From contig CAWEHK010000008.1 in NCBI GenBank assembly GCA_963808625.1, positions 96,001-160,000 of the forward strand: a DNA stretch of 64,000 bases, written 5' to 3'. Below, piece after piece: positions 4,080-46,713 of the stretch. Each line of letters starts with the position of its first letter. Positions within the stretch are counted from its first letter, which is position 1. The stretch comes from an uncultured delta proteobacterium (lineage in GTDB: Bacteria > Desulfobacterota > Syntrophobacteria > Syntrophobacterales > Syntrophobacteraceae). Both the position numbers and the translations under genes were made by a program. Under the pieces are notes generated by a model. The model was not told the origin of the DNA. It saw nothing but the letters and a program-made list of their open reading frames with translations, and did no database searches.

Positions 4080-4121
4080 AACTTCGGACTTCACATTCCT
4101 CGCGGGATATGCTGTGCGACT

Positions 4122-7402: not shown

Positions 7403-8134
7403 GTGGATGACGGCTTGCTGCTCGGAGAGTTCCAGCCCCCGCAGTGTTTTGGCCTGACCGATACCAGGATTCTCATATTGAAAATCGATCCCCAAAAGTA
7501 CTCCTTCAAGCTGATGAGTGCCTCGGAGCATGGCGGCAGAAAAATGACTCTCAAGGAATGGTGCACGAAACATGGGCTTGTGGCGGCTTTTAACGCCGGA
7601 ATGTACCAGGAGGACGGTATTACCAGTGTCGGGTACATGAAAAACTTCAAACACATCAACAATGGCAGACTGAATACTAACAAGGCTGTTTTGGCCTTCA
7701 ACCCCGTTGATGCCAGTGTCCCGGAAATCCAGATCATCGACAGGGAATGTCAGGATTTTGAAAACCTCAAGGGAAAATACCGAACGTTTCTTCAAAGCAT
7801 CAGAATGGTCTCTTGTGAGCAGAAGAATGTCTGGAGCCCACAGACCACCGCGTGGAGCACCCTGGCGATAGGCATTGACAAGGCTCAGAAGGTCCTGATT
7901 GTCTTCAGTCAGCAACCGTATCCGGTGCATGACCTCATCGAGATTCTCCTCTCACTGCCGATCTCCCTCTACAACGCCATGTATCTGGAAGGCGGACCGC
8001 AGGCATCGGTCTATTTATCGAGCAACAACAGCACGATTGAAACCCAGGGGAGATGGGAGGGCAGTCCCGACAGTCCCAATCCGCTTCGGATTTCCTGGCC
8101 GATCCCGAACGTCCTCGGTATTGTCAAGAAATGA
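7403..8134 (+). CDS. Phosphodiester glycosidase (NAGPA/DUF2233) family protein
   Basis: AAFNAGMY, WSTLAIGID, AMYLEGG and PIPNVLG motifs. A hydrophobic signal-like stretch lies upstream (~7300-7365) in another frame, so the true start is probably earlier. Confidence 0.7.
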   Translation: MDDGLLLGEFQPPQCFGLTDTRILILKIDPQKYSFKLMSASEHGGRKMTLKEWCTKHGLVAAFNAGMYQEDGITSVGYMKNFKHINNGRLNTNKAVLAFNPVDASVPEIQIIDRECQDFENLKGKYRTFLQSIRMVSCEQKNVWSPQTTAWSTLAIGIDKAQKVLIVFSQQPYPVHDLIEILLSLPISLYNAMYLEGGPQASVYLSSNNSTIETQGRWEGSPDSPNPLRISWPIPNVLGIVKK

Positions 8135-16330: not shown

Positions 16331-19300
16331 TTAATCATTGTCAGCAATCGTGACCACCGCACTGGCCGTCGATCCCACGATGTACGTTGTGGTGTCGGAC
16401 AGTTTGATGATAACGGTTTCTGCTCCCTCAGTGACGGCGTCATCAATGGGGGTAATGAAGACATTTACGGAAGCGGCTCCGGCGGCGATGGTGGCCGCTG
16501 CAGTCCGTTTCACGTAGTCTACACCGTTGGTCGCCGTACCTCCGAGTGTGTATTCGATCCTGAGAGCCAGATCCAGTAGCACCCGTTCGGGTAATGGTGA
16601 ACTTACCGGCTTTGGGACCCGTTTCCGAGGCCTTGGGGATCGCTGCCTTGACGGTTACGGTCGGAAGGTTGTTGCCCAGAATGGTAACCGTCTTACTGCT
16701 GCCTGCCCCGATCCGGTAGGCGCTATCCTCGTCAAGGGCAAGAACGACGGTCTTGTTGTCCAGCCTTTCCGTGTTTGCCAGAGCGGTTATCACGATATCG
16801 ACAGTGGATGATCCCTTGGGAATCACCGCGGTGCCGGAGAGTGGCGTATAATCGAGGCCGGATTGGGCCGTACCGCTGTCGGAGCTGTACCGAACCGTCA
16901 GCGCGGTACTGGTGGCTCCGTCCCGTTTGATCCTGATCCTTCCCGTATTATCCGGCGCTGCGGCAATGGCATCCGGAACGGACATCGTTACCACCGGTAA
17001 GTCATCATCCTTGATCGCTATCGTAGCATTATCGGGCGAACCCAGTTTGTACTGGCTGCTGCTCTGGAGCGTAGCCCTGACCGTCCGGCTCCCCTTGTAG
17101 GTCCCGTCATCGATGGGTATCACCTCGATGCTTGCCGAAGATGAGCCCGCCTCGATCGCTACGGAACCGGAAAGGGTCTGATAATCGGTACCGTTTTTCG
17201 CCGTTCCACCGAGCGCATAATTGGCGGTGAGGGGTGGAGAGGTTGTCCCCATGCGCGTGACAATGAATTGCCCGGTGGTAGTGCCCGCCTCAGTAATGCT
17301 GGCAGTGCTGGATTTGATCGTAAGAACAGGCAAATCATTGTCGACAATGGTAACCCTGGCAATGTTCGACTCACCAATACTATACGCGGCGGCATTGGGA
17401 GTAAGCGTGAGCTCCACCGTCTCATCATTTTCGGTTTCACTGTCGTCGATGGCTGTCACCTTGATCAGTTGCCGAAGATGCTCCGATCGGGATAGTCACG
17501 GACCCGAGAAGGGTTTTGTAATCCTTACCGGCTGTTGCCGTGCCCCCGATGCTGTACTTGACAATGAGCGCGGCTTTGGTGATCCCCGTCCGGGAGACCG
17601 TGAAGGTGGCCGTGTCCGTGCCGGGTTCGGAAGCCGTATCGTCTGTTGCAGCAACGGTAACCGTAGGCAAGTCATTATCGCCAATAACGATGGTGGCACT
17701 CTTTGCCGTTCCCAAGGTATACGCAGTGTCAGGGGAAAGCGTGATGATAACGCTTTCATCCCCTTCGTACTCGGCATCGTCGATCGGATTCACATCGATC
17801 GTGATCGATGCCTGGCCTGCAGGGATAGTTATCGTTCCGGGCAAGACCTCATAATCAATCTCATTGGTTGCGGTACCGGTTACCGTGTATGCTACGATCA
17901 AATCCGAATGGGTATTGCCTGCTCGCGAGACCCTGAACTGTCCCACCGTTCCCGGTTCAGCGGCGTTACGGCCGAGATAAACGGATACCACCGGGTATTC
18001 GTCATCTACAATGATGACAGCCGCCTCATTTGGTGATCCAACGTAATAGGATGCACTCTCTGCAAGAGTCAAGACAACCGATTTGTCGGCATCCACGGTT
18101 TTATTGTCCAATGGCACGACCGGAACATCCACGGAAGATGCATCGGCCGGGATAATCACAGTCCCGGAGAGAGCCACGTAATTCGAACCGGGAACTGCGG
18201 TGCCGCTCATGCCATACTTCACGGTCAGCGGCGCACCGGTTTCTCCAGTCCGGAAAATGGTGAAGGTGCCCGTATCGGTTCCAGGCTCGGAAGCGAAATC
18301 ATCCGTTGCAACGACACTGACCTTTGGCCATTCGTCGTCGCGAATGCTGATGGCAGCATTGCCGGGAGGTGCGATATTGATGAAGGAATCAGGCGTCAGG
18401 TTCAGGATCACCGTTCTGGTTCCTTTCGCCAATTGATCATTGATGGGAGCAACTGGAATATCTATGGAAGCAGCGCCCGTTGGTAGGGTTACTGTGCCGT
18501 TGAGCGTTGCGTCATAGTCGACACCAGTGACGGCCGTACCGGTAACGCTGTAAGCCACCGTTAACGGCAAGGCCGTACTCCCCAGGCGACTGATCGTGAA
18601 AACACCGACATCGGTGCCGTTTTCATCGATGATACTTGGCAAGGCCGAGATGCTGATCGTGGGAAGATCATTATCATGAATGGTGACTGTTCCACTGCCA
18701 GGTGAACCGACCGTGTAGAGGCTGTTTGCCGAGATCGCCACTTTAACCGTTTCATCCCCTTCATATATGCTGTCATCGTAGGGTACGACGTTGATCTTTG
18801 CCGATGCGGAACCGGCGGAGATGGTCACGCTACCGTTAAGTTTCTGATATCTCACCCCGTTACTGGCTGAACCGCCGATTGCATAACGCACAAGCAATGA
18901 CCCACTGGTCGTGCCGTTTCGGAAAATCGTGAAGGTCCCGTTCTTGGGGCCGGTCTCAGAGGCATTATCATCGGTTGCTTCAATCGTAATGGTTGGCAAA
19001 TCATTATCGTTAATGAGTATACTGGCACTGTATGGGGCACCGACTTTGTACCAATCGTTGGGCAGAATGGTCAGGAGAACGGTTTCTCGATCTTCAGGCA
19101 GAGCATCATCGATAGGCGTAATTTGAATGAGCGCTGAAGATGAACCGCTCGGGATCGTCACACTGCCGGAAAGCAAGTTGTAATCATCGCCATTGGCAGC
19201 GGTCCCGGTTGCCTTGTAGTATACGGTCAGCGGGCCGGTGATGTCTCCCACCCGGGAGACCTTAAATTCGCCAGGGTCCGAGTCGGTCTCGGACGCTCGG

Positions 19301-22300
19301 TTGTCAGTGTAGACGATAGTCACCGTGGGCAGGTCGTCATCCGTAATGGTGACGGTGGCGCTGCTGGACGAACCGATGGTATAAGACTCACTTGGCGAAA
19401 TCGTGAGGACGACCGTCTCCGGGCCCTCCAGTTTCATGTCATCGATGGGTTTGACCAGGATGTCTGCGGAAGAGGCACCGGCGGCGATGGTCACCGTCCC
19501 GGAAAGCGTGGCATAATCGGTACCGTTCGTCGCCGTACCACCAATGCTGTAGGAGATGGTCAGCAACGCGGTCGTGACTCCCGTTCGAGAGACAGTAAAC
19601 TGGCCCTGGTCTGCTGGTTCAGCGGCCTTGGGGTCACTGGCGGTGATCGTGACTACCGAACGATCATCATCAGCAATGGTTACGGTCGCTGTGTTTTGCG
19701 CGCCGATCTTGTAGGCGGCATCAGCGGAAAGGGTAAAAATAACTATTTCCTGGCCCTCATATTCTTCGTCCTGAAGCGGAGTGATCACGACATTGAAACT
19801 GGAAGAACCAGCGGGAATCGTCACCGGGCTGGTTATCAGCGAATAATCGGTCCCATTCGTTGCGGTCCCGCTGAGAGCGTAGCCCACAGCTAATGGCTTT
19901 GTCGTGCTTCCCGAACGATACACCGTGAGCAGGCCTGTGTCAGGCCCCTTTTCAGAGGCGTTAGGATCGGTTGCGATAATCGTCACGATCGGACGCGTGT
20001 CGTCGGCAATGGTAACCGTAGCGCTCGCGGGAGTTCCCGCATTGTACGCAGCAGTGCCGAAAACACTAAGGACAACCGTTTCATCTCCCTCCAGAAGATC
20101 ATCATCGATCGGCGTCAGACTGACAGTTGCCGAAGGTGAGCCGGCCGGGATGACAAGAGACCCTGGAAGGGCGATATAATCGGTCCCGCTTGTTGCGGTA
20201 CCACTGAGAGTGTAGGTTACGGTCAATGCGGAGGTCGTAATTCCGCTTCGAGAGACCGTGAATTCCCCTGAATTTGGTCCCATTTCAGAAGCACTGGGAT
20301 TGGTAGCAGCAATCGTCACCACAGGCAGATCATTGTCTTTGATCGTGACCGTTGCGCTGCTGGCTGACCCCGTTTGATATGAGGGGTTACTCACCAGACT
20401 TAGTATTACCGTCTCGTCCCCCTCATATTCCATGTCTTCGATTGGCTGCACCGTGACCGTTACCGAGGAAAAACCGGCAGGAATAGTGACGGGACTGAGG
20501 GAAGCACTATAATCGACGCCATTAGTCGCCGTACCGCTGAAGGAAAAATAAACCGTGAGCGGTGAACTGGTCGACCCGGTACGAGAGAGCGTAAATTGGC
20601 CGATATCGGGGCTCGTTTCTGAGGCGTTCGCATCGTTTGCGGCAACGCTCACGACAGGCAGATCGTTGTCAGTAATGGTGACGGTTGCGGTGCCTGGCGA
20701 ACCAATATTGTACAGACTACTGGCCGCAAGGCTGAGAATAACCGTCTCATTACCATCAAACACCGTGTCATCAACAGGCGTTACCGTGATCACTGCCGCA
20801 GAGGCACCAGTCGCAATGGTTACACTGCCCGAAAGGAGCGAATAGTCAGCACCATTGGTGGCTGTGCCGCTTACGGTGTAGTTCACCACCAAGGTAGAAC
20901 TGGTAATGCCGCTACGGGTGAGTTGAAATTCCCCCTTTTGCGCTCCCGATTCCGAGATGATGGGCTTGGTCGCCGCTACTGTGACGGTTGGCAGGTCATT
21001 GTCGGTAATGGTAACGGTTGCACTGGCGGGAGAACCTACGGTGTAAGAGGGGCTTGGCGAGAGGGTCAGCACCACCGTTTCCGCCCCCTCATATTCGTCA
21101 TCATCAACGGGTGTCACGGTAATTACCGTAGAAGATGCACCAGCCGGTATCGTGACCGAACCTGGAAGTCTCGCACAGTCAGTGCCATTGGTGGCAGTGC
21201 CACTGATGGCATAATTCACGGTGAGTGGATTCGCGGTGTTCTCTGTCCGGTAGATGGTAAATCGACCGGGATCCCGCTCGGATTCATAAGCGGTGGAGTC
21301 GGTAGCTGCTATCGTTACCACCGGCAAATCGTTGTCCACAATGGTAATGGTGGCACTGCCGAAGGGACCGACGGTGTATGAGGCATCCGAGGCAAGGGTA
21401 AAGACAACGGTTTCATCCCCCTCGTATTGCGTGTCATTCATGGGGGTTACAAAAATGTTGGCAGTCGCGGTCCCGGCCGGAATGGTCAAGGTGCCCGAGA
21501 GCAGTCCGTAATCGACGCCGTTCGTGGCGTTACCACCAACGGTATAATTCACCGTCAGTGCCAAATTGGTTGGACCGCTACGGGAGATGGCAAACTGAGC
21601 CGATCCCGGGCCTGCTTCGGGAACACTGGCAACGATTGCGGTAACATTCACGGTAGGCAAGTCGTCGTCGACAATGGTGGCGGTCGCACTCACTGCGGAG
21701 CCGAGCGTGTAGGGAGCTCCGGAAGAAAGTGTCACGATGACGGTCTCGTCTCCTTCACATTGCAGATCATCGACGGGTACAATCGAAATGTCAGCAAGAG
21801 CAGCGCCTGCAGGGATCGTAATCGTGCCCGGAAGCAATCCATAATCGACGCCATTTGTGGCGGTGCCACCAACGGTATAGTTTACCGTCAGGTCCGAGGT
21901 GGTAATTCCGGTGCGTGAGACGGTCAGTCGAGCTGATCCCGGGTTTTTTTCCGGGACCGTCGCGGCCGACGTGGCAATCGTCACGGTAGGCAAATCGTTG
22001 TCGACAATTAACGCAGAAGCAGCGATTGCACCGCCAAGGTTATACGAAGAAGAGGATTTGAGCGTCAAGACGACCCACTCGTAGCCCTCATATTCAGAAT
22101 CATCGATAGGCTGTACCAGGATCACGGCCGAAGATGCGGCAGCGGGAATGGTCACCGAACCGGTGAGTGTCTGGTAATCTGTGCTGTTGGTGGCGGTCCC
22201 GCCGATCGTGTAGTCGATGATCAAGGGAGAAGTGGTTATCCCCGTGCGGGAAACGAGGAATTGAGCCGACCCCGAGCTCTGTTCAGGAACACTCGGAACC

Positions 22301-25150
22301 AAAGTCGTGATACTCACAGTCGGCAAATCATCATCAAGCAGGGCAACCACCGCGGTGCTCGGAGAGCCAATATCGTAGAGTGCGCCAGGGGCGAGCGTCA
22401 GCTGGATAGTCTCCAGACCTTCATAGTCCCCATCGTCGGTGGGCGTGATGGAAATCACTGCCGAGGTAGCACCCGACGGGATCGTAACCGTTCCCGGCAG
22501 CGTCGTGTAATCGAGTCCATTCGCCGCGGTCCCGCTGATTGTGTATTCAACGGTAAGAGGAACATCTCTGGCAGTGGAGGAATAAACCGTGAATTGTCCC
22601 TTATCCACACCCGTTTCGGAGGCCGTCGCATCGGTCGCGACGATGGTCATGAGAGGTCTTGTCACCGTGATGTAGGCATTCCTGGTCAGAGTGTCGGTCC
22701 CGCCGGGTCCTCCCACGGTTAGAGCCACACTGTAGCTGCCGGGGGTAGTGTAGGTATGGCTTGGATTGCGGACCGTACTCGAATTTCCGTCTCCATAGTC
22801 CCAAGTCCAGCTGGAAATGGTCCCTTCGGAAGTGTCGGTAAACTTGACTGCCAGGGGAAACACCCCGCTGGTTGGACTGGCGCTGAAATTTGCCAGCAGG
22901 GTATTGATCTTTAATACGAAGGCGTCTGAGCCTCCGGCGTTAGAGCCCATGAATGCGCTTGCGGTGAACGGAAAGTCCAGGGATGACGTCTTCCCGGTCA
23001 CGAACACATTACCGTTGGTCCCGGTGGCAATGCCGTAGCCGAAGTCGGCTCCACTGCCCCCAAGATAGGAAGAATAACCCAGTTTGTCTCCGGCAGCATT
23101 GATCCTCACCGCAAAGGCATCCGAACTTCCTCCGCCAAAGCCCGTTTGGACCGCCTTCAGGGTGGGGAAATTCCCCGAGGTCCTGCCGGTGACGTAAATA
23201 TTACCGCTGCCGTCCAAGGCAAGACCATAACCCACGTCACTGCCGCCGCCCCCAAGAAAGGTGGAATACGACAGGGTATCGCCCTGGGGCCCGAGCTTTG
23301 TGATGAAGACATCCGCATCACCACCGCCATAGGTGCTCTGCAGAGCATTGGCGACAGGAAAGTTGGAAGAGGAGGTCTTGCCGGTCAGGTAGGCATTGAA
23401 AGCGCTGTCGACGGTTATGCCGCGACCAAAATCGGCACCACTTCCGCCCAGATAGGTAGAGTAACTCGCATAACCGGATGCACTGTCAATTTTGACGACA
23501 AATGCGTCGAGGTCCCCACCGCGATAGGTAGTTTGAAATCCACCGACAATGGGAAAGTCCGTAGAAGCGGTTTCTCCGACTACGTAGATGTTTCCGCTGC
23601 TATCCAGGGCAATCCCATAACCGGCGTCATCGTTGCTTCCCCCAATAAAAGTCGAATAAGCAATGGTATTTCCGACCGTCCCCAAGTGCACGACGAAAGC
23701 GTCAGAATATCCGCCGCCATACTTGTTCTGAAAAGCGCTCCCTACGATTGGAAAGTCGGAAGATGAAGTCTCTCCGGTGATATAAGCCTGACCATTTCGG
23801 TCTACCGCGATACCCAGGCCAAGGTCATTCTGGCTTCCCCCGAGATAGGTCGAGTAAACCAGGGCAGTCCCTGCAGCATTGAGCTTGAGCACGAAAGCAT
23901 CGGTTAAACCGACGCTGCTGAGAGCCACCGAGTAGGCGCTGACGGTGGGGAAGTTGGGGGAGGTGGTCTCACCGGTCACGTAGGCGCAGCCAGACGTATC
24001 GACAGCGATGCCGTAAGCGGCCTCGCTGTCATTGCCGCCAACGTAGGTGGAATAAATGAGGGCTGTTCCATCAGCGTTGATTTTTGTAATGAAGACGTCC
24101 GAATCCCCACCCGCATAGAAGCTGCCTGACACGGGCTTGGTCGGAAAACTTGTGGAGGAGGTCCTGCCGGTGACGTAAGCATTGCTTTGGGCGTCAACCG
24201 CAATGGCGTTGCCGGTATCGCTTCCAAGGCCACCCAGATAGGTGGAATAACTCAGCACCGGGTCGATAATGATGGGATAGTTCTTGTCATAGGCCGCCAC
24301 TTCAAAGCCAAAGACAAACTCCTGCTCCTCCCGTGAAGCGTGCTGAGGCCAGGTTTCAATCCTAAACTTTCCTTCGATGTCGAAGCGTTTTCCATTGATC
24401 TCCTGATAGACGATCGGCTTCTTATGAATGAGTGTACCGCCGTCAGGCAACTGCAGAAGCAGATCGCCCTCTTTGCTGATTTCAAGACCCGCAACGCCTT
24501 TGTAGCCGAACTTGACCGGGGAAAGATCGGCGCCGGGTTTGACGATAATGTCGTATTCGAGTCTCCGATCGGAGCCGTAAAACTTGAGATCAACTCCGGG
24601 ATAAGCTTCGGAATACAGGACCGAACGGTAAGTCGGAATATCGGTGCGCCATTTCCCGGGATCCTTTCCAATAAGGTAATTTACCTTACCCTGCTGTTGC
24701 TCCTGAGCAATGACCCTGGCACCTTTTTGAATGCCGACCGGGAAGAGTCGCACCACTGAAATTTCGGCGCTTTCCTTATGGTGTCTCGTCTTGAAATCCG
24801 CGGCGGGTCCTCTGCTGGAGTCGAACTTCGTGGATACCGGCAAGGCCGCTTGCAGCTTTTTCAAAGCTGAACACTATTTCTTCTTCCGCAAAGAAGATGG
24901 TATGTCCTGAGGCCTTTTCGTAATACTTCACCCTTTCGTCGAATTGTCCTTCATTCTTGACAAAGTACAGCGGAAGCTGGCCGTGGGTTTTGATTTGCGG
25001 TGTCTTCTCAACCTCATTGGGCATCGCCATACTCAGCCGCAGGAACACGAAAATGCAGAAAATGGCAACTGCCAGCGCCATGAGAGATCTGCATGGTGAC
25101 TGTCTTCGCAATGAATCAACCTCCAACAGGCATTTCCTGGACGCTTTCAT
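16331..25150 (-). CDS. Giant surface protein: N-terminal domain, 7 SBBP propeller repeats, PKD domain and 19 Calx-beta-like repeats (frameshifts near 24850, 17465 and 16575)
   Basis: ORFs 24776-25213, 17437-24864, 16443-17459 and 16331-16582 join into one repeat-continuous protein. Seen: PLYFVKNEGQ, 7x YSTYLGG-like, WTWDYGDG..NPSHTY, and repeats ending in I.DND/DDLP with GTATNG.DY. Confidence 0.9.
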
Positions 25151-25444
25151 TTTGCCCGTCTCCTCTGATTGTGATTTGCATGAATCGGAGCTGCCCAAAT
25201 AGACGTCTATCATAGATTGATGGATCTTAATTTCCGGGAATAGGTATCATATCTGCGGGACTTCTGTCCATCCCTGATTGAATTAAGCCGCAGGCAACAG
25301 ATTTGGTTATTGAAATATGTCTGACCCGACCTCCTGCCGGGTATTGTTCCGCAAACTCCGAGCTTCCTCTCTCCCTTATCTTTCAGAACATCATCCATAG
25401 CCCTTTACACAGCTCCGTAGAATAAAGTCACCATTATCCTCGGT

Positions 25445-32649: not shown

Positions 32650-32720
32650 TTGACAGGCTTATATAACACGAATAATCTAATATTCGTGTTACTTGTATCG
32701 CCTGATTATGAAGATGTCAA
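32650..32720. promoter_or_regulatory. Divergent promoter region with perfect 11-6-11 palindrome TAACACGAATA-ATCTAA-TATTCGTGTTA (32664-32691), probable TunR-type operator
   Basis: Palindrome read directly. TTGACA at 32650-32655 is followed after 17 nt by TAATCT on the + strand, and there is a TTGACA on the - strand at 32715-32720. Confidence 0.75.
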
Positions 32721-32753
32721 GAGACTTTTCGCGAGAATTGGAGGCTACTTTCC

Positions 32754-33833
32754 ATGAATCAGCCGCACTGTAGCATACCCACTCCTGCCAACCACTCCCG
32801 AATCTTGGCGGGATCGGGCCCCTCCCGGTGTCTCGATGCGCTCCAGCTTCAGCGTCTCGAGGAATCGTTTCGGCGGTGGGCACAATCGTCACGGAACCCC
32901 AACCTGCGATGGTCCAGAAAACGAATTCTTCTGATCTTCCTCCTGATCCGGTACACGGGCGCCAGATTGAATGAAGTTCTGAATCTTGACCCCGTGCTCG
33001 AGATCGACTGCGATCATCACATCGTTCGGCTTCGCAAGACGGGCCCCGACGGCGACGCTTCGAGCCGCGAAATCCAGATCCCGGAGCTCTTGTCGGCAGA
33101 GATCCGGGAGACGCTCCGGGAGCTGCAGCTCAAAGACCCTCAGGGAAAGCTTTTCAAGGTGGACCCGGCACATGTTCGCCGCAAGTTCTACGCCATGGCG
33201 GAAGCGGCCGGTATGCCACGGGAGTCGGGAACCCCTGAAGTCATCAGAAGATCCAGGGCGGTGGAACTGATGCAGAGCAACGTGCCTCTCCCCGTGGTGC
33301 AAAAGATCCTCGGCCACTCCACACCGAGTCTCGCCGCTTCTTACGTGGAGTTTTCCGATGATGACATTCGCGACGTGGCAAGGCACTTTGCCGACAAGGA
33401 GGATCAGCGCAGGACCAGTGCGCGGAATACTTTTTTCGGCAAAATCGATACTGTCCGCGTAGGCGATGTACAGACCATCGTGGAAATGGTGTCGCTCGGC
33501 GGGGCCCGGGTTTGTGCGGTGATCACCAATTACAGTCACGCCCGCCTCGGCCTGAAACCCGGCACGCTCGCCACAGCGGAAGTGAAGGCACCATGGGTGA
33601 TGCTTTTCAAAGGCGAGCAGGAACCGCATAGTACTGCTGAAAACAGGTTTTGTGGAAAAGTCAGCCGCGTTCTCAGGGGAAAGGTGACGACGGAAATCGT
33701 CGTGCGCATCCCGGACGGCACCGAACTATGCTCCATCATTACCGAGAAGAGCAAACAAACGCTCGCTATCAAAGAGAACGATACCATGTGGGTGGCATTC
33801 AGCGCCTTTGCCGTGGTCATTCATACCGACTGA
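32754..33833 (+). CDS. tunR: TunR-like tungstate/molybdate-responsive regulator (tyrosine-recombinase fold plus two TOBE/Mop domains)
   Basis: YTGARLNE and VQKILGHS...SY integrase fold, followed by TSARNTFFGKI and STAENRFCGKV Mop repeats. Located in a Mo/W gene cluster. Confidence 0.75.
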   Translation: MNQPHCSIPTPANHSRILAGSGPSRCLDALQLQRLEESFRRWAQSSRNPNLRWSRKRILLIFLLIRYTGARLNEVLNLDPVLEIDCDHHIVRLRKTGPDGDASSREIQIPELLSAEIRETLRELQLKDPQGKLFKVDPAHVRRKFYAMAEAAGMPRESGTPEVIRRSRAVELMQSNVPLPVVQKILGHSTPSLAASYVEFSDDDIRDVARHFADKEDQRRTSARNTFFGKIDTVRVGDVQTIVEMVSLGGARVCAVITNYSHARLGLKPGTLATAEVKAPWVMLFKGEQEPHSTAENRFCGKVSRVLRGKVTTEIVVRIPDGTELCSIITEKSKQTLAIKENDTMWVAFSAFAVVIHTD

Positions 33834-38113: not shown

Positions 38114-41100
38114 CTATTCTTGTGGTTCCGGCAACTCCGGGCAGGTCTTGCGGTACGGTTCATCACCCAGGAACTGCCGCCACTCGGAGCGGGTCAGGTT
38201 GCGATTTGCCATGCGGCAAGCTCTTGCTTTCCATGACTCAAGGTCAAGATCCCAGAGGATGACGGTAGCATCCTGACTTCCCGAGGCCAGGGTCTTGCCG
38301 TCGGGGCTGAAAGCGACGCTAAACACGCCATCCTTGTGGCCTCTTAGCGGGTCGCCCATGGGTTGGCGAGTGGTTACCTCCCAGAGGATGACGGTCTGAT
38401 CCCAACTCCCCGAGGCCAGGGTCTTGCCGTCGGGGCTGAAGGCGACGCTTGACACGCCATACTTGTGGCCTCTTAGCGGCTCGCCCATGGGTTGGCGGGT
38501 GGTCACATCCCAGAGGATGACGGTTTTATCCTCACTCCCCGAGGCCAGGGTCTTGCCGTCGGGGCTGAAGGCAACGCTGCGCACGGCTCTTCGTGGCCTC
38601 TTAGCGGCTCGCCCATGGGTTGGCGGGTGGCCACATCCCAGAGGATGACGGTTTTATCCCCACTCCCCGAGGCCAGGGTCTTGCCGTCGGGGCTGAAGGC
38701 GACGCTATCCACGTAATCCTTGTGGCCTGTTAGAGGTTCGCCCATGGGCTGGCGGGTGGTCACATCCCAGAGGATGACGGTTTTATCCCCACTCCCCGAG
38801 GCCAGGGTCTTGCCGTCGGGGCTGAAGGCGACGCTACGACACGCCATCCTTATGGCCTCTTAGCGGCTCGCCCATGGGCTGGCGGGTGGTCACATCCCAG
38901 AGGATGACGGTTTTGTCCTCACTCCCCGAGGCGAGGGTCTTGCCGTCGGGGCTGAAGGCGACGCTGTCACCGCGGTCTTTGTGGCCTCTCAGCGGCTCGC
39001 CTATGGGTTGGCGGGTGGCCACATCCCAGAGGATGACGGTTTTATCCCCACTCCCCGAGGCGAGGGTCTTGCCGTCGGGGCTGAAGGCGACGCTATACAC
39101 AGAATCCTTGTGGCCTGTTAGCGGTTCGCCTATGGGTTGGCGGGTGGTCACATCCCAGAGGATGACGGTTTTATCCCTACTCCCCGAGGCCAGGGTCTTG
39201 CCGTCGGGGCTGAAGGCGACGCTATCACAGGTAACCTTGTGGCCTGTCAGCGGCTCGCCCATGGGTTGGCGGGTGGCCACATCCCAGAGGATGACGGTTT
39301 CATCCCAACTCCCCGAGGCCAGGGTCTTGCCGTCGGGGCTGAAGGCGACGCTTATCACGTAACTCCTTGTGGCCTGTTAGCGGCTCGCCCATGGGTTGGC
39401 GGGTGGTCACATCCCAGAGGATGACGGTTTTATCCCAACTCCCCGAGGCCAGGGTCTTGCCGTCGGGGCTGAAGGCGACGCTCGACACGCCATCCTTGTG
39501 GCCTCTTAGCGGCTCGCCCATGGGCTGGCGGGTGGTCACATCCCAGAGGATGACGGTTTTATCCTCACTCCCCGAGGCGAGGGTCTTGCCGTCGGGGCTG
39601 AAGGCGACGCTCGTCACCGGATCCTTGTGGCCTCTTAGCGGCTCGCCCATGGGTTGGCGGGTGGTCACATCCCAGAGGATGACGGTTTTGTCCCCACTCC
39701 CCGAGGCGAGGGTCTTGCCGTCGGGGCTGAAGGCGACGCTATCCACACGGTCTTCGTGGCCTCTTAGCGGCTCGCCCATGGGTTGGCGGGTGGTCACATC
39801 CCAGAGGATGACGGTATTATCCCCACTTCCCGAGGCGAGGGTCTTGCCGTCGGGGCTGAAGGCGACGCTCAACACGAAATTCTTATGGCCTCTTAGCGGC
39901 TCGCCTATGGGTTGGCGGGTGGTCACATCCCAGAGGATGACGGTTTTATCCCCACTCCCCGAGGCCAGGGTCTTGCCGTCGGGGCTGAAGGCGACGCTCG
40001 TCACGGATTTCCTTGTGGCCAGAGAAAAAGGTGCCAAGGTAAGGGTTATGGAGAAGGGCATTCATAAGACTGCTTTTCGCTTCAAAGGTGTCATGGGCAC
40101 GCCATGATTCCACCCCCAACAACAGGGCCTGGTCCAGCTGAGTGTCCAACCGGTTTAGCGCTTGGGCAGCCAATTGGCGGGACAAGGCTATCCTGCGTTG
40201 CTCATCCGCCTTCTTCTCATTAGAAATTGCGATCTGAGTCTGAGAACGTGCGAACTCAGCCTGTTCTTCGGCTCGCCGGGCTTCGTTCCCCGCTCGCCGC
40301 CACTGCATCCCGGCAAGTCCTGCCAGAACCAGGAAGACGAGGGCTGCCGCAAGCGCACCGATGGTTATCCGCCGCCTCGAGCGCTCCCTGGCTGCCCGCT
40401 CACGTTCCCTCGCAGCCATGCTCTCCCTGATGAAGTCCTGTTCACCGGGTGGCAGGTCTTGAGGCCTTTCCGCAAGCCAACGCTCCGCCTCCGTGAGCGG
40501 CGCCCCGCGCAGGAGGGTCTCCGCATCATGATCGGTGCGCTCCCACTCTTCCAGAGCGACTTTCAACCGCTGGGACCACAGCAGGAACTCCCGGTCTTCG
40601 TCCACCCAGCCCCGCAGCCGCCCCCAGTTCCGGATGAGGGCCTCATGGGCCACTTCAACGCTTTGCACCCCGGTGGCCCGGTCCTGCCCCGTCACCAGGA
40701 GTCGTGCGTCTGCCAGGTTCTTCACCAGCGGTTGGGCTGATTCGGGCACTTCGGTTATGGCGGCGCGCCGCCGGGTATCTTCCACCCCCTCTCCGGGTTT
40801 TACCAACTGCATGAACACGCTTCGCACCATCTTCTGCTCGCGGGTCCGTCAGCCGTGCGAACAGTTCCTCCGCGCGGCAGGCGATGGCGCCCTGGACTCC
40901 TCCCATGGCCTCGTAGGCTTCGTGGAGCAGTTGGCCTCCATGGCGCTTTTCCCAGAGCTCCGTCAGGACGAACTCGAGCAGAGGAAGGTTTCCGGGCTCT
41001 TCCCTCACATCGTTCAAGATCCGCTTGACCAGGCCCGGTTCGAAGTTCAAACAGACCTTCTCCGCAGGACCCACAACCGCCCGCTCCAGTTCCTCCCCGG

Positions 41101-42182
41101 TCATGGGACCGAGATTGACCACGGCGTCCTGCAGGCGATCGGCCAGGGGGCGGTAGCTCAAAGCATGGCCGAAGAAATCCCCCCGAAGGGTGAGCACAAC
41201 GGTGAGGGAACCCGCCGCCGCGGCCTCGAGCAGTTGGTCGATGAACCGGGCGCGGATGGGTTCATCCTGGCAGAGGGTGTAAAGCTCCTCCCACTGGTCG
41301 GCCAAAAGGAGGAGGCGGTCCGTTCCGGGTTGTTTCTCGAGAGCTCGGGTCACCACGTCCCGCAGAGCCACCTCCCCTTCGGCAAAAGCCCTCCCCAGTT
41401 TCCCTATCTCGCGCAGACGCTCCGTTTCCGTCATCGCCGGCTCGAGGAGCGGGATCAGGGCAGCAGCCAGAGCATGCAGAGGGCGGTCACCGGGAACGAG
41501 GGTGGCCACGTCCCAAACCTTTCCCCCGCCTTCCCGCCTGAGGCGTGGCACCAGCCCTGCCCGAGCCACGGAGGACTTGCCGCAGCCCGAAGCCCCGACG
41601 AGTGCCACCAGGCTCTGCCGCCTGGCAGCTTGCAGCAGCTTGTCGGTGAAGGTTTCCCGTGCCGAAAAAGAAGGAAGCGTCTTCCTCCCGGAAAGGGCGC
41701 AGTCCACGGTAGGGGCAGACGGCGGCGAGGGTCGCCTGAATTCTTTCCTGGAAGGCGGGGCCCGGAGCTTCTCCGCGTATCGCTGCCGCGAGGATCTCCA
41801 GGGCCAGGGGGCTTTCCTGCCGGCTGCTCAAGTCCACCCAGGTGTTCAGGGAAAGAAATCCCAGGGCCGGTTCCGCCGCGGCAAGCAGCACGGGAATGAC
41901 CGGGAAGCGGGGATCACGAGCCTGGCGGTCCAATGCCAGATCTTTCTCCCGCTGCTGCCAGCGGCCCATTCCCTGGGGTCCGAGGAAGACCGCCACGGCG
42001 CGGCAGGAGTTCAGAGCCTCTTCCAGCGCCTGGGGCCACGGACGCCCGGCAACCAGATACCATCGGTCCAGAAAGACCTTCAGATCTCGTTCGCGCAAGG
42101 CCCAGGCAACATTTTCCACCGCCTCGCGATCCCGCCAGTTGTAGCTGAAAAAAACGTCGTATTTTTCGGGAGCAGGATTCAT
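38114..42182 (-). CDS. NLR-like protein: TIR - nSTAND1-type NTPase - TM helix - 14 WD40 repeats (about six frameshifts)
   Basis: TIR YDVFFSYNWRD...VFLDRW...WQQRE, then CPYRGLRPFREED..FFG, Walker A GASGCGKSS, LADQWEELYT, PGNLPLLE, VAHEALIRNW and LLRGAPL. A hydrophobic helix precedes SVAFSPDGKTLASGS.D.TVILWD repeats. Stitched from seven ORFs. Confidence 0.9.
38245..40020 (-). repeat. 14 near-identical 129 bp coding tandem repeats (WD40)
   Basis: GTCTTGCCGTCGGGGCTGAA recurs 14 times from ~38292 to ~39970 at 128-130 bp spacing. Confidence 0.95.
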
Positions 42183-42573: not shown

Positions 42574-42790
42574 TTAGGAAAAACGGGTGCGGGCTCGGAA
42601 AACCGCATGGGGTTTCCGCGATTGGTCTCTGAAGTGGCCCTCGGCAAGGGAGGGGCCATTCTGGGCTTGGAGGTCAGCCGGTTGGCAAGATCGTGCTCGG
42701 ACTGGTACCGCCTCCTGGAGGCAGCCGCCCTGGCCGGGGCGCTGATCGTCGATGAGGAAGGGATCTACGATCCGAACGAGCACAATGCTC
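42574..42790 (+). pseudogene. Internal fragment of a large serine recombinase
   Basis: LGKTGAGSENRMGFPRLVSEVALG...LEVSRLARSCSDWYRLLE...LIVDEEGIYDP is a resolvase catalytic-domain segment. It is cut where the CHAT gene ends. Confidence 0.8.
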
Positions 42791-45682
42791 TAAAGAGCTG
42801 GTCAGGCATGGCATTGGGATCGCCATACAGGATGAACGCCAGGCGATCCATCCGGTTTGTCTCCAGCGGAATATCTCGCTTGGCCTCCCGCAGGCACTGG
42901 CCCATGGTGTAGGTTCCCTTGAGCAAAGACTCATAGAACTTTTTGACGAATTTCCTGGCGGAAGCGGAGTCAATGTTCCACAGCGTTCCGACGTAAGCCT
43001 CGACGCCAGCCCGCAGGAAGGCGCTGGGCAAGTCATAGGTTTGGTTCTCGTAGATCGCGGGCCGTGGATCGGCAGGGGTCGCGCTCTCGCACGATGAGCT
43101 GAACACCAGGACCGGCGGGGCCCCCTGGAGCGCGCTGGTCAAGAGATCGGTGGTAATTCGGCCGTCCTTCAAGGCCCATCCGCTGTCCTCGCCGTCGAAA
43201 CCACTGTGGCCAGAGTAGTGGATCAAGCCGTACTGTCCGCTGCTCAGGCGCTCCAACAGCGCCATCCACTCGCATTGCTTCGAGCCCATCAAGACGTCTT
43301 CATCTTTGATCTCAAAACGGCCGTCGCCCAGCAGCATCGTGCGCAGGTCTTCGATCTCCTCACGAGACGCCGACAGGTCATCGGTCGGGTCGCCAATCAG
43401 CAGGGTCCTAACCTTGGCGCCACCTCGCACGGGCGGCCGGATATTATGCGCTTCCGGTCCGACGATACTACGCCCGACCATGAATGGAAGGTCCTTGCCG
43501 GCATAGGCCGCCTCCAACATCAACTCCCATGGGATATGCTGCAAGCCTTCGTCGATGGTAAACAAGATCGTCGCATCGTCCGGCGGGTTGTCGAGATACC
43601 TCTTGATGGCGTCGGTCGTAAAGTAGGTCCGGATAAAATCTGCAACTTGCTCCAGGTTCTGCTCCAGGTTCTCCTTCGCCGTAGAGGCGTCGGACGGGGC
43701 CGGGTGCAGCAAATGGTTGACACGTTCTCGATAGCCTGCCAGGAACCGAGCCTTGGTGTCTGCTGTCATTCGCTTCTGGGCCGAGACGAGATGCGCACCG
43801 CGTCGGCCAAACAAGGTAGTGACAACGTTCGGATGAGGCTGGAGAAAGCGCGATGACCACGTCTCGTGGCTTGTCCTCGCGGCGATCCAGCAGGCCGAAA
43901 TAGCCCAGGAGCCATTCGGCAAAGGAGTCTACCATGAACTGGGCCGTTCTGGGGTCCGCCGTGTCGGTGAGATAGCCATGCCGGTCAAGCCAAACAAGCC
44001 ATTTCTGTTGCAAGTCGAGCCTGGGATCATCCTGTACCAACAGAGCCTGGTACTTCTCGCCAGCGTCCTTTTCTTTGTCGAGGACCCCGATCAACTGCGC
44101 GAGCTTCGCTCGCGGTTAACGGCCGCTGCCAGCGTCTTCAGGGTGTGCTTCTCCTCTTCGTTCAGCGGGCGGAGCAGGGCTTCAAAGAACTCGCGGCGTG
44201 GGCGCTCAATGTCTTGGATGGCACGATCATGGGCTTTTGTTGACCCATTTGCTTCCTTTTCATGGCGGATGAGCGCCGATGACGCCAGGGCAATGAGATA
44301 GGGGTGTCGCCCAGCCTCTGTGCTGACAAAGTCGGTGCTCCGCCTTCAGCCGGTTCCCGCATCAGGTAGGTCTTAAAGAGCTGTCACCCACTGTGTTCGC
44401 TCGTCTTCGGTGAGGCATGACAACCATACCAGCTTGATGGCGCTGTCGAAGCAAGCGCTCACCGCTTCCTCGATCATTTCTGTGGAACTGGCACTCACCT
44501 TATCTCGCATGTCCCTGTATCGGCGCTGGTCATTCACCGCAATGATGAATTGCGCCCCGGCTTTCTCCACGTCGTCCAGCACCTGCCAGAACATACGATG
44601 TTCTTGACTGGCTTCTTGGCTTACGGCCTCCGACAGAGGCACCCGCGCTATCCTGCCTCATCTTCCATGCTGGCTCGTCGACCAGGAACAGGAATCGCCG
44701 GTTGCGATCGCTTTCGGTTTTCAGGAAGTCCTTCAGCGATTTCTCCGGATCATCGCCGTCAAAAGCCTTGCGGAGCTCTTCCTTCTTGTCTTCCTCTTCG
44801 ATAGCCTCCAGGCTCAACAGGAACTTGCGATAGACGAAGTCTTCGGCCGTGTTCTTGTGCAACCGCCCGAAACTCACCTTGCCTACTTGCCAGTCCCGAA
44901 ACAGCCGCTCGGCATCAGGATCGTGGGCACGATAAAACAAGTGCTCCAGCAGCGCCGTCTTGCCCATATTCGGGCTGCCAAGGACCAGGACCCGGCGCCC
45001 ATCGCCGACTGCGCTTTCGATCTCCTTGATCTCAGCCTCACGGGCGCCGAAATCGCGGGCCTGCAGGCCATACAATGCTGCATCATGAGGCGTGCCCAGG
45101 ATACGCTCCGCCTCCTTAACGTATTTCTCGTTGTTTTCACGTTGCGTTTCGTAGCCTGCGTCCGCTTCTGGAGGAAGAAAGAGGAGGATATAGATCGACT
45201 TCAGCCCGCGCGGGGATGCCAGGAAAACCTTGAGGGCCGTGCACATCTGGCGAGCACATGAGCCGAATCCAACTCTTACCCGGCCTGTGGCAAAGGCAGG
45301 CAGCGCCAGGCTAGCTATCGAGAGCTTCTCCGCCTCACGCAGGCAATTGATGGTGACCTCGTAGACCAGTTGCTCTAAAGTATAGTTGTCCGGTGTCGTA
45401 GTCGATCACGGCGCCATGCAGGACGTGTTTCACGTTCAGACCCTGGCTTGGCAAATCGCCAGGTCCAGTGACCACAACCGTGCCGGCTTCCAGGGGACAT
45501 TGGCGATGGGCCTCTTCAACGTATGCCGGACCGGCTTTTTTGGCCAGCTGGAGAGAGACACCGGCCCCCATCGTGAGGTAGTTGTCGTCGCTGCTCGCCA
45601 CAGCGTCGACCGACGCGGGCGGATTCAGGATGTTACCCTCACAGATCTCGACCGTCGTGTTGCCGAATTGAAACTTAGCCAT
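42765..45682 (-). CDS. Macro domain - STAND-type P-loop NTPase - CHAT (caspase/HetF-like) protease fusion, ~970 aa, about six frameshifts
   Basis: Macro: VEICEGNI...VDAVASSDDNYLTMGAGVS...VLHGAV, continuing in another frame as SLALPAFATG. NTPase: Walker A GSPNMGKT, Walker B FLFLVDE, and AGRHPYLIAL. CHAT: IPWELM, LIHYSGH, VFSSSC, AFLRAGVEAYVGTLW and AFILYGDP. Confidence 0.75.
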
Positions 45683-45790
45683 CGGTGCTCCTCATTTTCA
45701 GCTTGCGCTCGGTCTAATCGCCAGCGTCCGCCCCCTGGTGGAAAATGCACTCGGATAGGGGGCGGACAATTTCCATACTACGCCATCAGC

Positions 45791-46713
45791 TCAGAGCGTC
45801 GAAAAGACTTGCAGGGTCCGCAGCTTCGGTCGGAGCATTCGAGCTGTGGCTTCTGCTCGTAACTCTTGAGGTTGGCCGCGGCTAGCTGGATCAGCGGCCT
45901 GTAGGTCAGATCGCCTGTCGGCCCCGTTGATTGCCTCGCCCAAAGCCCAGGTGAACGCCCCGCGCCACGTCGCTGCCGATCCTGGCATCGGCCGCAGTCT
46001 CACGGTCTTCGTACAGGCCGCCAGCAGGACGTGGCGGTCGAAGTCCACGATGCCGAACTTGTTCTGGCGGAAGCGATGGCGCAGTTCTTTCATGAACTCC
46101 TGCATCTTCGACGTCCCACTCCTCAGGTGGAACGCTTTGCAGCATCTTCGACAACTCTGTGCCGACCAGGTGTCGAACTCGGCGTCGCGTTTGCCTGCAT
46201 CGCTTCGATGCGCTCCTGTCGATCTCCTGCGGCGGTATCAGGTAGCGTGGAATGAACTCGACGGTGCTTCCTGGAGGGGCCTCTGGATGCTGCCGCTGTG
46301 ACAGCAATCGGCAATGAAGGTGAAATTGACCTCTGCCGGGAAAATCTCGAAGATGGCGCGCAGGTCGTCGTCACGGAACGGCTTGTCCCAGTCGTGGTCG
46401 TAGGGGACGATGACCTCGTCGAAGCCTTCCCACTCCTCGTTGTTCTGGTCCGTCACCTGCGTGCCGTGGCTGCGAGAAGTGGAAGACCCGAACGTCCTGC
46501 CGCTCTGCTAGTCGTCCAGCAGCCAGCCAGGCCGTCACATATGCCCTGGTTCGTGGCATCCTTGTCGTGTAGGAGCTTGATGTCATTATCTTGAAATCCG
46601 AAGTAGGTAGTCAAGAGGCTGTTCATCTCGATGGTATCGTTGATACAGCCTCGCAGCGCCCAATCAGGGCGGACAAAGTTGTTGATCCCGACCAGCAGTG
46701 CTCGTTTGACCAT
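45791..46713 (-). CDS. Metacaspase (peptidase C14 family), heavily frameshifted
   Basis: KRALLVGIN...LRGCIND, VFHFS/SHGTQ (catalytic His), DEVIVPYD, IADCCHSGS (catalytic Cys), LLAAC/ETAADA, GAFTWAL and YEQKPQL, spread over three frames. GGAGG RBS. Confidence 0.85.

Follow-up and report, generated by a model that had tools for sequence, protein, structure and literature searches.

On the reading that we prefer, at a probability of about 0.5, the window (the whole 64,000-nucleotide stretch of DNA analysed here, from an uncultured delta proteobacterium) carries, in damaged form, a mobile conflict module of two genes that is rarely encountered, in which a metacaspase and a Macro-STAND NTPase-CHAT fusion protein would form a ligand-triggered protease cascade. 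A first-pass annotation, made from the letters alone, had proposed two co-oriented minus-strand genes about 110 bp apart, hidden in short open reading frames (ORFs); both genes could be rebuilt, with a gap of about 108 nt. The pair and its parts are laid out as follows.

45794..46713, minus strand: gene 1, C14 metacaspase, about 306 codons with about 11 frame changes.
45683..45790, minus strand: intergenic spacer of about 108 nt, with a GAGGAG Shine-Dalgarno sequence before the ATG at 45682.
45682-42768, minus strand: gene 2, Macro, STAND-like NTPase and CHAT, about 970 aa with 6 robust frame changes.
45174..45682, minus strand: Macro domain of gene 2, with DDNYLTMGAGVS at 45589-45554, LPAFATG at 45303-45283 and a frame change near 45388 inside it.
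44459..45030, minus strand: P-loop NTPase core with Walker A and Walker B and a frame change near 44656.
43899..44447, minus strand: helical or winged-helix region that follows the NTPase and contains GRHPYL at 44312-44295, as well as frame changes (DP) near 44384, 44340 and 44096.
42768..43863, minus strand: CHAT protease domain, with IHYSGH at 43223-43206, SSSCES at 43100-43083 and a frame change near 43847.

Gene 1 starts with an ATG at 46713, preceded 8 nt upstream by AGGAGG, and ends with a TGA at about 45793-45791; its pieces are shared among three reading frames of the minus strand. The SHG and DCCHSG motifs on which the metacaspase assignment had been based were placed at 46471-46457 (SHGTQ, with the catalytic His) and at 46309-46292 (DCCHSG, with the catalytic Cys). 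Gene 1 fragments matched Pfam Peptidase_C14 (PF00656) at E 9.5e-6 and E 0.002, the first scoring 25.9 bits against the curated cut-off of 21.4, and intact orthologs matched the same family at E 1e-29 to 1e-35. Frameshift-aware alignment gave 61-68% identity to six intact orthologs, with 9-12 frame changes (modal 11). H83 and C137/C138 were invariant in the orthologs (12/12 sequences), and the linker residues F154, R157, L159 and P161 were kept among the metacaspase sequences. The 306-aa protein consists of p20 and p10 only and lacks a sensor or adaptor domain. Among PDB sequences, one ortholog (L014) matched best to AtMC4, yeast Mca1, AtMC9 and T. brucei MCA2 (E 2e-26 to 2e-15), and by sequence the gene 1 protein is closer to metacaspases than to caspases or paracaspases. 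The metacaspase of another locus (L017) carries a fused MBL-fold domain, with matches to the LmuA (2e-57) and Avs1a (2e-37) defence models.

Gene 2 is likewise dispersed over three frames, between the ATG at 45682, with GAGGAG upstream, and a TAG at 42767-42765. Tblastn searches with intact homologs of 954-971 aa matched their residues 11-969 within the window, so the whole gene is present. Its identity to intact relatives was 48% in frameshift-aware alignment and the best homolog of the CHAT piece alone was found at E 1e-131; judged by sequence, the homology is far beyond chance. The Macro, P-loop NTPase and CHAT domains named in the first-pass annotation were all recovered with their motifs. 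The Macro domain reached 28 bits (PF01661; cut-off 22) and the CHAT domain 84 bits (PF12770; cut-off 24, E 1.6e-23). Walker A (GSPNMGKT) lies at 44979-44956 and Walker B (FLFLVDE) at 44694-44674; the Pfam scores of the NTPase were all below cut-off, with AAA_16 at 27.5 bits (cut-off 32.6, E 5e-6), ATPase_2 at 23.1 (33.2) and nSTAND3 at 17.1 (27.2), and PF13191 is a precomputed annotation of 15 of 59 fusion homologs.

An AlphaFold model of a fusion homolog (pLDDT 87.1) placed helices at residues 414-600. Model residues 210-600 matched PAB2304 at Z 20.0 with 312 aligned, followed by SSO1545 (Z 18.2), ORC/Cdc6 (Z 16-16.6) and the NB-ARC of plant NLRs (Z 16-16.5); in the model, helical or winged-helix domains come after the NTPase, an arrangement shared with NLR, ORC and Cdc6 proteins. 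The CHAT part showed no sequence-level PDB match; its structural matches were separase (Z 22.2), gingipain (Z 20.3), Csx29 (Z 19.7; Foldseek E 4e-12) and the SAVED-CHAT filament 8tl0 (Z 18.2). A C-terminal repeat sensor is typical of STAND NTPases but not universal. Neither Pfam nor the model revealed TPR, WD40 or LRR repeats in gene 2, in which CHAT forms the C-terminus, and no gasdermin family was found by Pfam in 105 neighbour ORFs or 49 window ORFs, in keeping with the earlier remark that neither a TPR sensor nor a gasdermin was visible.

The search for intact relatives returned 59 fusion homologs with 40-59% identity, 53 of them annotated with both Macro and CHAT (Pfam); the three domains occur in a single gene and not as separate unlinked genes, and on this sequence evidence the Macro-NTPase-CHAT fusion is a real single-gene family. 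Walker A, the CHAT His and Cys and the Macro loop residues were invariant or nearly so across 54-66 sequences: G253, G257 and K258 belong to this class, and H822/H826 and C865 of CHAT were invariant. The Macro pocket loops kept in the alignment are what we take to be the ligand-binding residues. The family carries the JGI name 'O-acetyl-ADP-ribose deacetylase' and, elsewhere, the label 'CHAT domain-containing protein'. A metacaspase gene stands directly upstream of the fusion, on the same strand, at 15 of the 17 evaluable loci, some of which are not independent (L055 is identical with L014, and L060 nearly so with L015), in line with the adjacency that the first-pass annotation had proposed to check; it is missing at L018 and L057. 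The spacing of the two genes at related loci is 13-280 nt. Further evidence of pairing came from a comparison by eye of fusion homologs (59) with the metacaspase homologs among the matches listed (120), which gave 14 exact agreements in the length of the longest contig. The module is rare, since two clade samples of 401 genomes yielded it in 1 genome each, and its named carriers are all filamentous-type Chloroflexota (Anaerolineae, Caldilineaceae and 'Chloroflexia' MAGs).

Two further features adjoin the pair in the window.

38117..42182, minus strand: gene for a TIR_2, nSTAND1 NTPase and WD40 protein, directly downstream of gene 2, with at least 6 frame changes.
42607..42790, plus strand: resolvase-like (serine recombinase) N-terminal fragment, a weak match (PF00239 E 0.001, 19.6 bits, below the cut-off of 23.3).

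The broken TIR gene, which the first-pass annotation had overlooked, matched TIR_2 (E 5e-25), nSTAND1 (E 2.5e-80) and WD40 in Pfam; its TIR part also gave weak matches to the PDC-S66, SAVED_TIR and bSEFIR models. Its frame changes were counted by DP against the homologs at L015 and L054, and nSTAND1-repeat homologs were found adjoining the pair at L015, L016, L018 and L054. A Pfam scan of 105 of the 141 neighbour ORFs at 16 loci placed SIR2, TIR or NUDIX defence-type genes at nine of them, in addition to the window. SIR2_2 or TIR_2 was present at 8/16 loci, with SIR2 rather than TIR at most loci; the SIR2 domains resemble the ThsA, pAgo-SIR2 and Dsr2 models. NUDIX had a Pfam match at 3/16 loci and, with BLAST clustering, occurred at seven. 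At L057 a TIR gene adjoins and a SIR2-trypsin protease stands beside the fusion in place of the metacaspase. Because four loci (L017, L056, L065 and L073), out of the 12 that extend 1.3 kb or more downstream, have no SIR2 or TIR, the link to NADases may reflect only the clustering of defence islands. In the window, GC content is 0.58-0.64 within the island, compared with about 0.55 in its surroundings. A search of 40 related genomes turned up no relative of the region, and the island looks horizontally acquired; the resolvase-like fragment, which abuts the 3' end of gene 2, is a possible scar of a mobile element.

The frame changes bear on whether this copy is broken in the cell or only in the assembly. 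In gene 2 they number 6-8 depending on the homolog, robustly near 45388, 44656, 44384, 44340, 44096 and 43847, and the copy of the module in the window (genes 1 and 2) has about 17. Together with the TIR gene, about 8.6 kb contain 23 or more frame changes but no more than one nonsense codon, itself doubtful: after frame correction, none was seen with the closest homologs of genes 1 and 2, while two more distant homologs each gave a single matched stop. Related Illumina-type contigs have two extra bases at 44381/44383, and where the window shifts frame, related short-read contigs stay in frame. Outside the island, a genus-conserved HSP70-like gene has a +1 frameshift at 3419. We favour local indel errors of the assembly over real decay, since frame changes are many and nonsense codons almost absent, short-read relatives are in frame and the HSP70-like gene is frameshifted elsewhere; the copy may nevertheless be non-functional. 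A somewhat unlikely reading is that the island is a genuine decaying pseudogene region, acquired horizontally and inactivated by small indels, with nothing functional left. The frame changes cluster in 38-47 kb, about 20-40 times denser than in the flanks, and their positions are not clearly in homopolymers; the flanking genes are open, as is a 2478-codon ORF of the window, and 387 codons of gene 2 are open after the frame change at 43847. A uniform error model fails on this island-only density and on the two long intact stretches, which real decay could fit. Decay would also suit the abutting resolvase-like fragment, the deviating GC content with no relative in the 40 genomes, and the genome of locus L018 (G433), which carries a broken fusion and no metacaspase. 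Against decay stand the near absence of nonsense codons, the corrected proteins, which are as near to their orthologs as the orthologs are to one another, and the frameshift in a genus-conserved gene of the same genome; an assembly of 84.6% completeness in just 54 contigs would fit an indel-rich consensus.

By analogy with described systems, the module preferred here probably serves cell defence through a protease cascade of two steps that a signal sets off. The N-terminal Macro domain would bind ADP-ribose or an ADPR-derived molecule, whose likely source would be the NAD-consuming SIR2 or TIR enzymes beside the pair, usually carried on STAND-repeat sensors of their own. Bound ligand would release the NTPase switch and let the fusion protein oligomerise; the clustered CHAT domains would turn active and cleave the metacaspase zymogen, probably in the conserved p20-p10 linker, and the active, Arg/Lys-specific metacaspase would degrade cell proteins, so that the infected cell becomes dormant or dies. 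The NUDIX-like neighbours would hold basal ADPR at a low level. The SIR2, TIR and NUDIX genes that recur near the pair lend the proposed sensing, oligomerisation and cleavage some indirect backing. The window and four other loci have nSTAND1-WD40/TPR sensors with a SIR2 or TIR NADase next to the pair, and a wider network can be imagined, doubtful as it is, in which first-tier SIR2/TIR-STAND sensors recognise an invader and release an ADPR-type messenger, the Macro-STAND-CHAT protein acts as a second-tier helper that reads the messenger, assembles and fires a CHAT-then-metacaspase cascade, and NUDIX-like proteins serve as the off-switch.

The Macro domain could instead be a catalytic output or regulator, an ADP-ribosyl hydrolase that strips the ADP-ribose marks of phage or toxin ADP-ribosyltransferases or destroys an ADPR signal, with the trigger sensed by the NTPase-helical region or the metacaspase. 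The Macro domain of the homolog model matched PARP14, AF1521 and macroH2A (Z 20.7-22.7, rmsd 2.0-2.5), and its closest folds at equal Z include both hydrolases (AF1521, MacroD) and binders (macroH2A1.1, PARP9). True hydrolases thus rank among the best (AF1521 at Z 22.5, Oceanobacillus MacroD at Z 22.3), canonical STAND proteins carry their effector at the N-terminus, and the JGI name points the same way. The fusion would then be left with no recognisable sensor, given the lack of repeats in Pfam or the model, and the family consensus GSGVSxxLR does not keep the Asp and His that, we presume, MacroD-type enzymes have after the glycine loop, which counts against catalysis; we consider this alternative unlikely.

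The order of the two proteases can also be questioned. The metacaspase comes first in gene order, the fusion does without it at two of 17 loci, and at one of these the SIR2-trypsin protease stands beside the fusion, as might be seen if the metacaspase processed the fusion, for example by freeing an autoinhibited CHAT, or if the two were parallel proteases that are only co-regulated. This seems quite unlikely to us: the metacaspase has no sensor or adaptor of its own, and the sole characterised pair of CHAT and caspase, in passages of Steens et al. (10.1101/2023.06.23.546230), is CHAT-first. There, in the type III-B CRISPR-CBASS hybrid of Haliangium ochraceum, ligand binding leads to oligomerisation and active CHAT, and SAVED-CHAT cleaves and activates PCaspase, which degrades many proteins.

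As in SAVED-CHAT/PCaspase, a sensor-CHAT fusion gene adjoins a small caspase-family gene (15/17 loci here). Unlike it, the sensor is Macro plus a STAND-like NTPase rather than SAVED for cyclic oligoadenylate, the neighbouring protease is a canonical metacaspase akin to those of plants and yeast, and CRISPR/cas, CD-NTase, PCi, PCc-sigma and kinase genes were not seen among the 105 neighbour ORFs of 16 loci. Passages on Thoeris describe a Macro-domain effector that senses TIR-made His-ADPR (type II; 10.64898/2025.12.03.692087) and a caspase-like protease activated by TIR-made N7-cADPR (type IV; 10.1101/2024.10.24.620036). The pair would resemble these in passing a NAD-derived signal to a Macro or caspase-like effector, with a TIR gene adjoining in the window and at L057. 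It differs in its added NTPase switch and second protease, in having mostly SIR2 instead of TIR, and in a window TIR fused to nSTAND1-WD40 rather than a stand-alone ThsB; neither protein of the pair had a match among the PADLOC Thoeris models (ThsA-E, ThsB). Craspase (type III-E gRAMP with the TPR-CHAT Csx29) and separase provided the best structural matches of CHAT, but TPR repeats, an RNA-guided partner, Csx30/31 and sigma factor genes are absent here, and activation is proposed to proceed via a small molecule and the NTPase. With Avs/AVAST, bNACHT and caspase-STAND conflict systems the fusion shares a STAND-type NTPase coupled to death-type effectors, but it lacks a C-terminal repeat sensor; PADLOC Avs models did not match it, the Avs1a match being confined to the MBL domain of the L017 metacaspase.

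Passages of Kaur, Burroughs, Iyer and Aravind (PMC7159879, PMC8195603) tie caspase/STAND conflict systems to bacteria of multicellular habit. With all named carriers filamentous-type, the pair might be a self-proteolysis module for developmental or stress-induced cell death in filamentous bacteria and not directed at invaders. We think this improbable in view of the very patchy spread, the defence-type neighbours (SIR2, TIR and Avs1a/LmuA-like domains) and the signs of horizontal transfer in the window's genome. Those passages mention caspase proteins with Macro fusions among EACC2-caspase genes (PMC8195603); they contain neither a Macro-NTPase-CHAT protein nor its pairing with a metacaspase, and the word 'CHAT' does not occur in PMC7159879. 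The claim of an undescribed system held in part: the models of PADLOC v2.0.0 include none for the fusion and our literature search returned no description of the architecture, so the pair did not match a described system, while its two principles, a sensor-CHAT that activates a neighbouring caspase and a Macro receiver of a TIR-made ADPR signal, are already known from the SAVED-CHAT and type II Thoeris passages.

For annotation, the fusion family and its metacaspase form one unit, and genes of this kind can be hidden by indel-rich assemblies. If the proposal is right, prokaryotes would have a second known initiator-executioner protease cascade, and for the first time one run by a Macro domain with a STAND NTPase in place of a cyclic-oligonucleotide sensor; the module would connect defence enzymes that consume NAD (SIR2, TIR) with cell death of the caspase type, in a simple two-gene system open to testing. 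The recurrent NADase-STAND neighbours raise the question of whether bacteria, like plants, have NLR-like sensor/helper pairs that communicate via a small molecule. The wider network, if true, would parallel the animal initiator and executioner caspases and, within one prokaryotic gene cluster, the plant route from TIR-NLR through a small molecule to a helper NLR.

The window carries two genes on the same strand, both with repeatedly broken frames.

46713 to 42768, minus strand: two co-oriented genes, frames repeatedly broken
ATG 46713 to near 45791, minus strand: gene 1, metacaspase; AGGAGG precedes the start; fragments match Peptidase_C14
ATG 45682 to TAG 42767-42765, minus strand: gene 2, Macro-NTPase-CHAT; GAGGAG precedes the start

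The first-pass annotation had assembled two co-oriented broken genes here, and the Pfam matches of the fragments, their motifs and the spacer of ~108 nt confirmed this arrangement. Gene 1 contains SHGTQ and DCCHSG. Pfam analysis of the gene 2 fragments gave a Macro match of 28 bits (above cut-off), AAA_16 and ATPase_2 matches that were both under cut-off, and a CHAT match (E 1.6e-23) together with a weaker Peptidase_C25 match. Every motif read earlier in gene 2 (Walker A, Walker B, GRHPYL, IHYSGH and SSSCES) was found there. The window's own genome contains no paralog of the region.

The Macro-NTPase-CHAT fusion proposed for gene 2 belongs to a real protein family. With the CHAT piece (387 aa) as the query, 76 longer proteins were retrieved, 59 of which were 40-59% identical over ~90% of the query; the NTPase fragment as a word-indexed query for longer proteins gave no match. 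Fifty-three of the 59 homologs are 936-1036 aa long and annotated as Macro plus CHAT, 15 of them also as AAA_16. The other six comprise five shorter proteins (694-852 aa, on short contigs) and P0042, which has a weak Macro match (E 5e-5). An exhaustive HMMER scan with the Macro C-terminal/NTPase fragment yielded only 41 cluster representatives at E<=1e-3, of which 23 reached E<=1e-10, indicating that the fusion family is small. Across aligned sets of 54 and 66 members, little or no variation was seen in the glycines and lysine of Walker A, in GRHPY, in the His and Cys of CHAT or in the loops of the Macro domain. The AlphaFold2 model of one homolog, P0004 (pLDDT 87.1, pTM 0.65), is composed of a Macro part (residues 10-180), an NTPase (228-410), a helical region (414-600) and a CHAT part (612-960). 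Structure comparison revealed that the Macro part resembles PARP14, AF1521, MacroD and macroH2A (Z ~21-23), that the NTPase with the helices resembles PAB2304 (Z 20.0), SSO1545, ORC/Cdc6 and plant NLRs (Z ~16), and that the CHAT part resembles separase (Z 22.2), gingipain, Csx29, the anti-sigma factor DdvA and the SAVED-CHAT filament (Z 18.2). Searching PDB sequences with the profile of the family retrieved Macro chains only; no chain matched the NTPase or the CHAT part.

Thirty-nine loci from scans of genome and metagenome collections were examined, 18 of which include the N-terminus of the fusion. Seventeen could be evaluated upstream; L058, with only 469 bp of upstream sequence, was excluded. 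Of these, 15 have a metacaspase (43-100% identity) immediately upstream in the same orientation, the adjacency that the first-pass annotation had proposed to test; the exceptions are L018, in which the fusion itself is frameshifted, and L057. Because L055 is a duplicate of L014, and L060 almost one of L015, ~13 of the 15 pairings are independent. Further support comes from largest-contig sizes: for 14 of the 59 fusion homologs this size is identical to that of one of at least 120 metacaspase homologs listed, as compared by eye. The mean column identity of twelve aligned metacaspases was 70%; their His and Cys do not vary and their linker motif is conserved. By sequence they are nearest to plant, yeast and trypanosome metacaspases. 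Complex prediction for the helical and CHAT regions of the L014 protein (residues 415-977) with the metacaspase gave a score of 0.26 (mark 0.32), which counts neither way. At L017, the gene at 5869-7962 encodes a metacaspase whose N-terminus carries an MBL-fold domain matched by the PADLOC models LmuA (2e-57), RTasMBL and Avs1a (2e-37); this makes it a variant of the module with a swapped effector.

Intact homologs of 954-971 aa were covered on the window in three frames over their residues 11-969 by tblastn. The breaks were placed with a purpose-written frameshift-aware protein-to-DNA alignment by dynamic programming, HMM three-frame read-through being too coarse. Both genes could be rebuilt by this alignment, the check that the first-pass annotation had called for. 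Gene 2 required 6-8 frame changes depending on the homolog, 6 of them common to four homologs, along a path without a stop at 48% identity. Gene 1 required 9-12 by ortholog (11 with the two closest) at 61-68% identity; its corrected path is stop-free with four of six orthologs, and each of the remaining two gives one stop, at differing places. The neighbouring TIR-nSTAND1-WD40 gene adds at least 6 further frame changes with at most one doubtful stop. Only two public metagenome runs have words in common with the region, in small fractions (0.09 and 0.06); they yielded short contigs of relatives, 85-99% alike, that differ from the window by 1-2-base indels. These fall at 44381/44383, 45971, 46012, 46473, 46526 and 45807-45834, which are places of frame change in the alignment; close relatives therefore keep the frame.

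We consider an assembly artefact the probable source of the window's frame changes (roughly 0.65-0.7). Nonsense codons are practically absent among some 23 frame changes, the proteins after correction are conserved like true orthologs, and genome completeness is modest (84.6%) for only 54 contigs. A +1 frameshift is also present outside the island, the high-GC stretch of ~38-47 kb that holds the pair and the TIR-nSTAND1-WD40 gene:

2237-4074, plus strand: genus-conserved HSP70-like gene; one +1 frameshift at ~3419 leaves pieces of 455 and 232 codons

This gene is unbroken in four same-genus genomes (613-635 aa, 82-88% identical). The rival explanation is real decay, in which the window copy would be a dead island. 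It draws on the clustering of the breaks within 38-47 kb while the flanking genes and a 2478-codon ORF are open, on the unbroken final 387 codons of gene 2, and on the higher GC of the island with a weak resolvase-like fragment at its centre:

42607-42790, plus strand: short resolvase-like (serine recombinase) fragment overlapping the 3' end of the CHAT gene; Pfam E 0.001, under cut-off

A second genome, G433 (locus L018), is a further point for decay: the fusion there is broken over three frames between a SIR2-nSTAND1-WD40 gene and a NUDIX gene, and no close metacaspase ortholog was found genome-wide (best E 7e-12). The sites of frame change do not clearly coincide with homopolymers. Genome-wide long-ORF coverage was uninformative as a metric, because gaps are filled by spurious GC-rich frames.

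Three other features of the window were recorded.

17440-24873, minus strand: 2478-codon open frame with 13 Calx-beta, SBBP and PKD repeats; its DUF7948 N-terminal part is in a separate upstream frame (24779-25246, minus strand)
32712-33830, plus strand: Phage_integrase (E 6e-10) followed by two TOBE domains in one ORF, an unusual combination, ~4 kb from the island
1278-6800, plus strand: DUF2760, two HSP70-like proteins and a DUF3731 ('DnaK-related') domain, a cluster conserved in the genus

The split DUF7948 suggests one more frameshift.

At the DNA level, none of 40 related genomes contained a relative of the region. A sample of 400 other genomes from the window's phylum gave no full-length match, and neither, beyond the starting genome, did 400 genomes from the class of one carrier (G429). 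Chloroflexota-type MAGs are the source of all five full-length genome matches and of the named NCBI proteins; given these carriers and the lack of a full-length match elsewhere in the sampled phylum, the window copy of the pair looks horizontally acquired. Twenty other genomes of the phylum match by the CHAT part only, and all four such matches scanned are cyclase-CHAT proteins, three with TPR repeats. The cyclase-CHAT proteins at L112-L119 are ~1070-1200 aa long; three of the four scanned have a CsgG-like match and one has an N-terminal protein kinase domain. A FadL-like outer-membrane gene adjoins the cyclase-CHAT gene in all four, and a sigma-70-family gene lies upstream in two of three loci scanned (L113 and L119; zf-HC2 match in one). 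This is a different CHAT system, the protease domain of which is the closest in-phylum relative.

Pfam was run on 105 of the 141 neighbour ORFs at 16 loci. SIR2_2 or TIR_2 was found at 8 of the 16 (L014, L015, L016, L018, L054, L057, L058 and L060), NUDIX at 3 (L018, L058 and L065) and any of these at 9. Where at least 1.3 kb of downstream sequence is available (12 loci), SIR2 or TIR occurs at 8. By BLAST clustering, 6 loci carry a gene for a SIR2-trypsin fusion, 7 carry members of a NUDIX-like family, and 4 carry nSTAND1-repeat homologs of the window's TIR-nSTAND1-WD40 gene. The SIR2/TIR/NUDIX/nSTAND1 neighbours are mostly downstream on the same strand.

38117-42182, minus strand, window: TIR_2 + nSTAND1 + WD40 gene, the next gene downstream from the pair; 6 or more frame changes
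L015:11161-12555, L057:5659-7059, L060:5904-7268, L014:16175-17551: recurrent SIR2_2 + Trypsin_2 fusion, ~460 aa
L014:17566-18381, L015:12750-13481, L016:17997-18695: NUDIX-like gene, ~250 aa, often next after SIR2_2 + Trypsin_2

The window's TIR_2 + nSTAND1 + WD40 gene is an Avs-like NADase sensor that the first-pass annotation had left out of this finding, and the neighbour SIR2 domains resemble those of the defence proteins ThsA, pAgo-associated SIR2, Dsr2 and PDC-S65. PADLOC has no model for the SIR2_2 + Trypsin_2/NUDIX-like pair as such.

PADLOC v2.0.0 likewise contains no model for the Macro-NTPase-CHAT fusion (best match PDC-S27, E 0.008) and recognizes the metacaspase partner only by its generic 'caspase' model. 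A full-text literature search found neither the fusion protein nor its metacaspase pairing. Both are absent from the portions consulted of the Kaur et al. catalogues (2020, 2021; PMC7159879, PMC8195603) and the 2026 STAND survey, the supplements of which may list such proteins. These results agree with the impression that this is not a named system.

The analysis documents four domains whose catalytic and nucleotide-binding motifs are intact, a dedicated metacaspase partner, NAD/ADPR-related neighbours and a patchy, island-like distribution. We propose a model based on the one characterised CHAT-plus-caspase pair, SAVED-CHAT/PCaspase, and on type II and type IV Thoeris signalling. According to the respective reports, SAVED-CHAT with bound cA3 forms filaments and then specifically cleaves and activates PCaspase (10.1101/2023.06.23.546230), a TIR product is sensed by a Macro domain in type II Thoeris, and caspase-like proteases are TIR-activated in type IV (10.64898/2025.12.03.692087, 10.1101/2024.10.24.620036). 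By analogy, the Macro domain would bind an ADPR-type molecule from the neighbouring NADases, or might itself be catalytic. The NTPase switch would then oligomerise and CHAT would cut the metacaspase linker, with the site predicted at residues ~145-225 and the two proteases possibly acting in the reverse order or in parallel. The metacaspase would finally carry out broad proteolysis; a developmental role of the pair is an alternative. We read the pair as a probable cascade from a sensor-fused CHAT protease to a caspase, combined with signalling of the ADPR type; this would not be categorically new.
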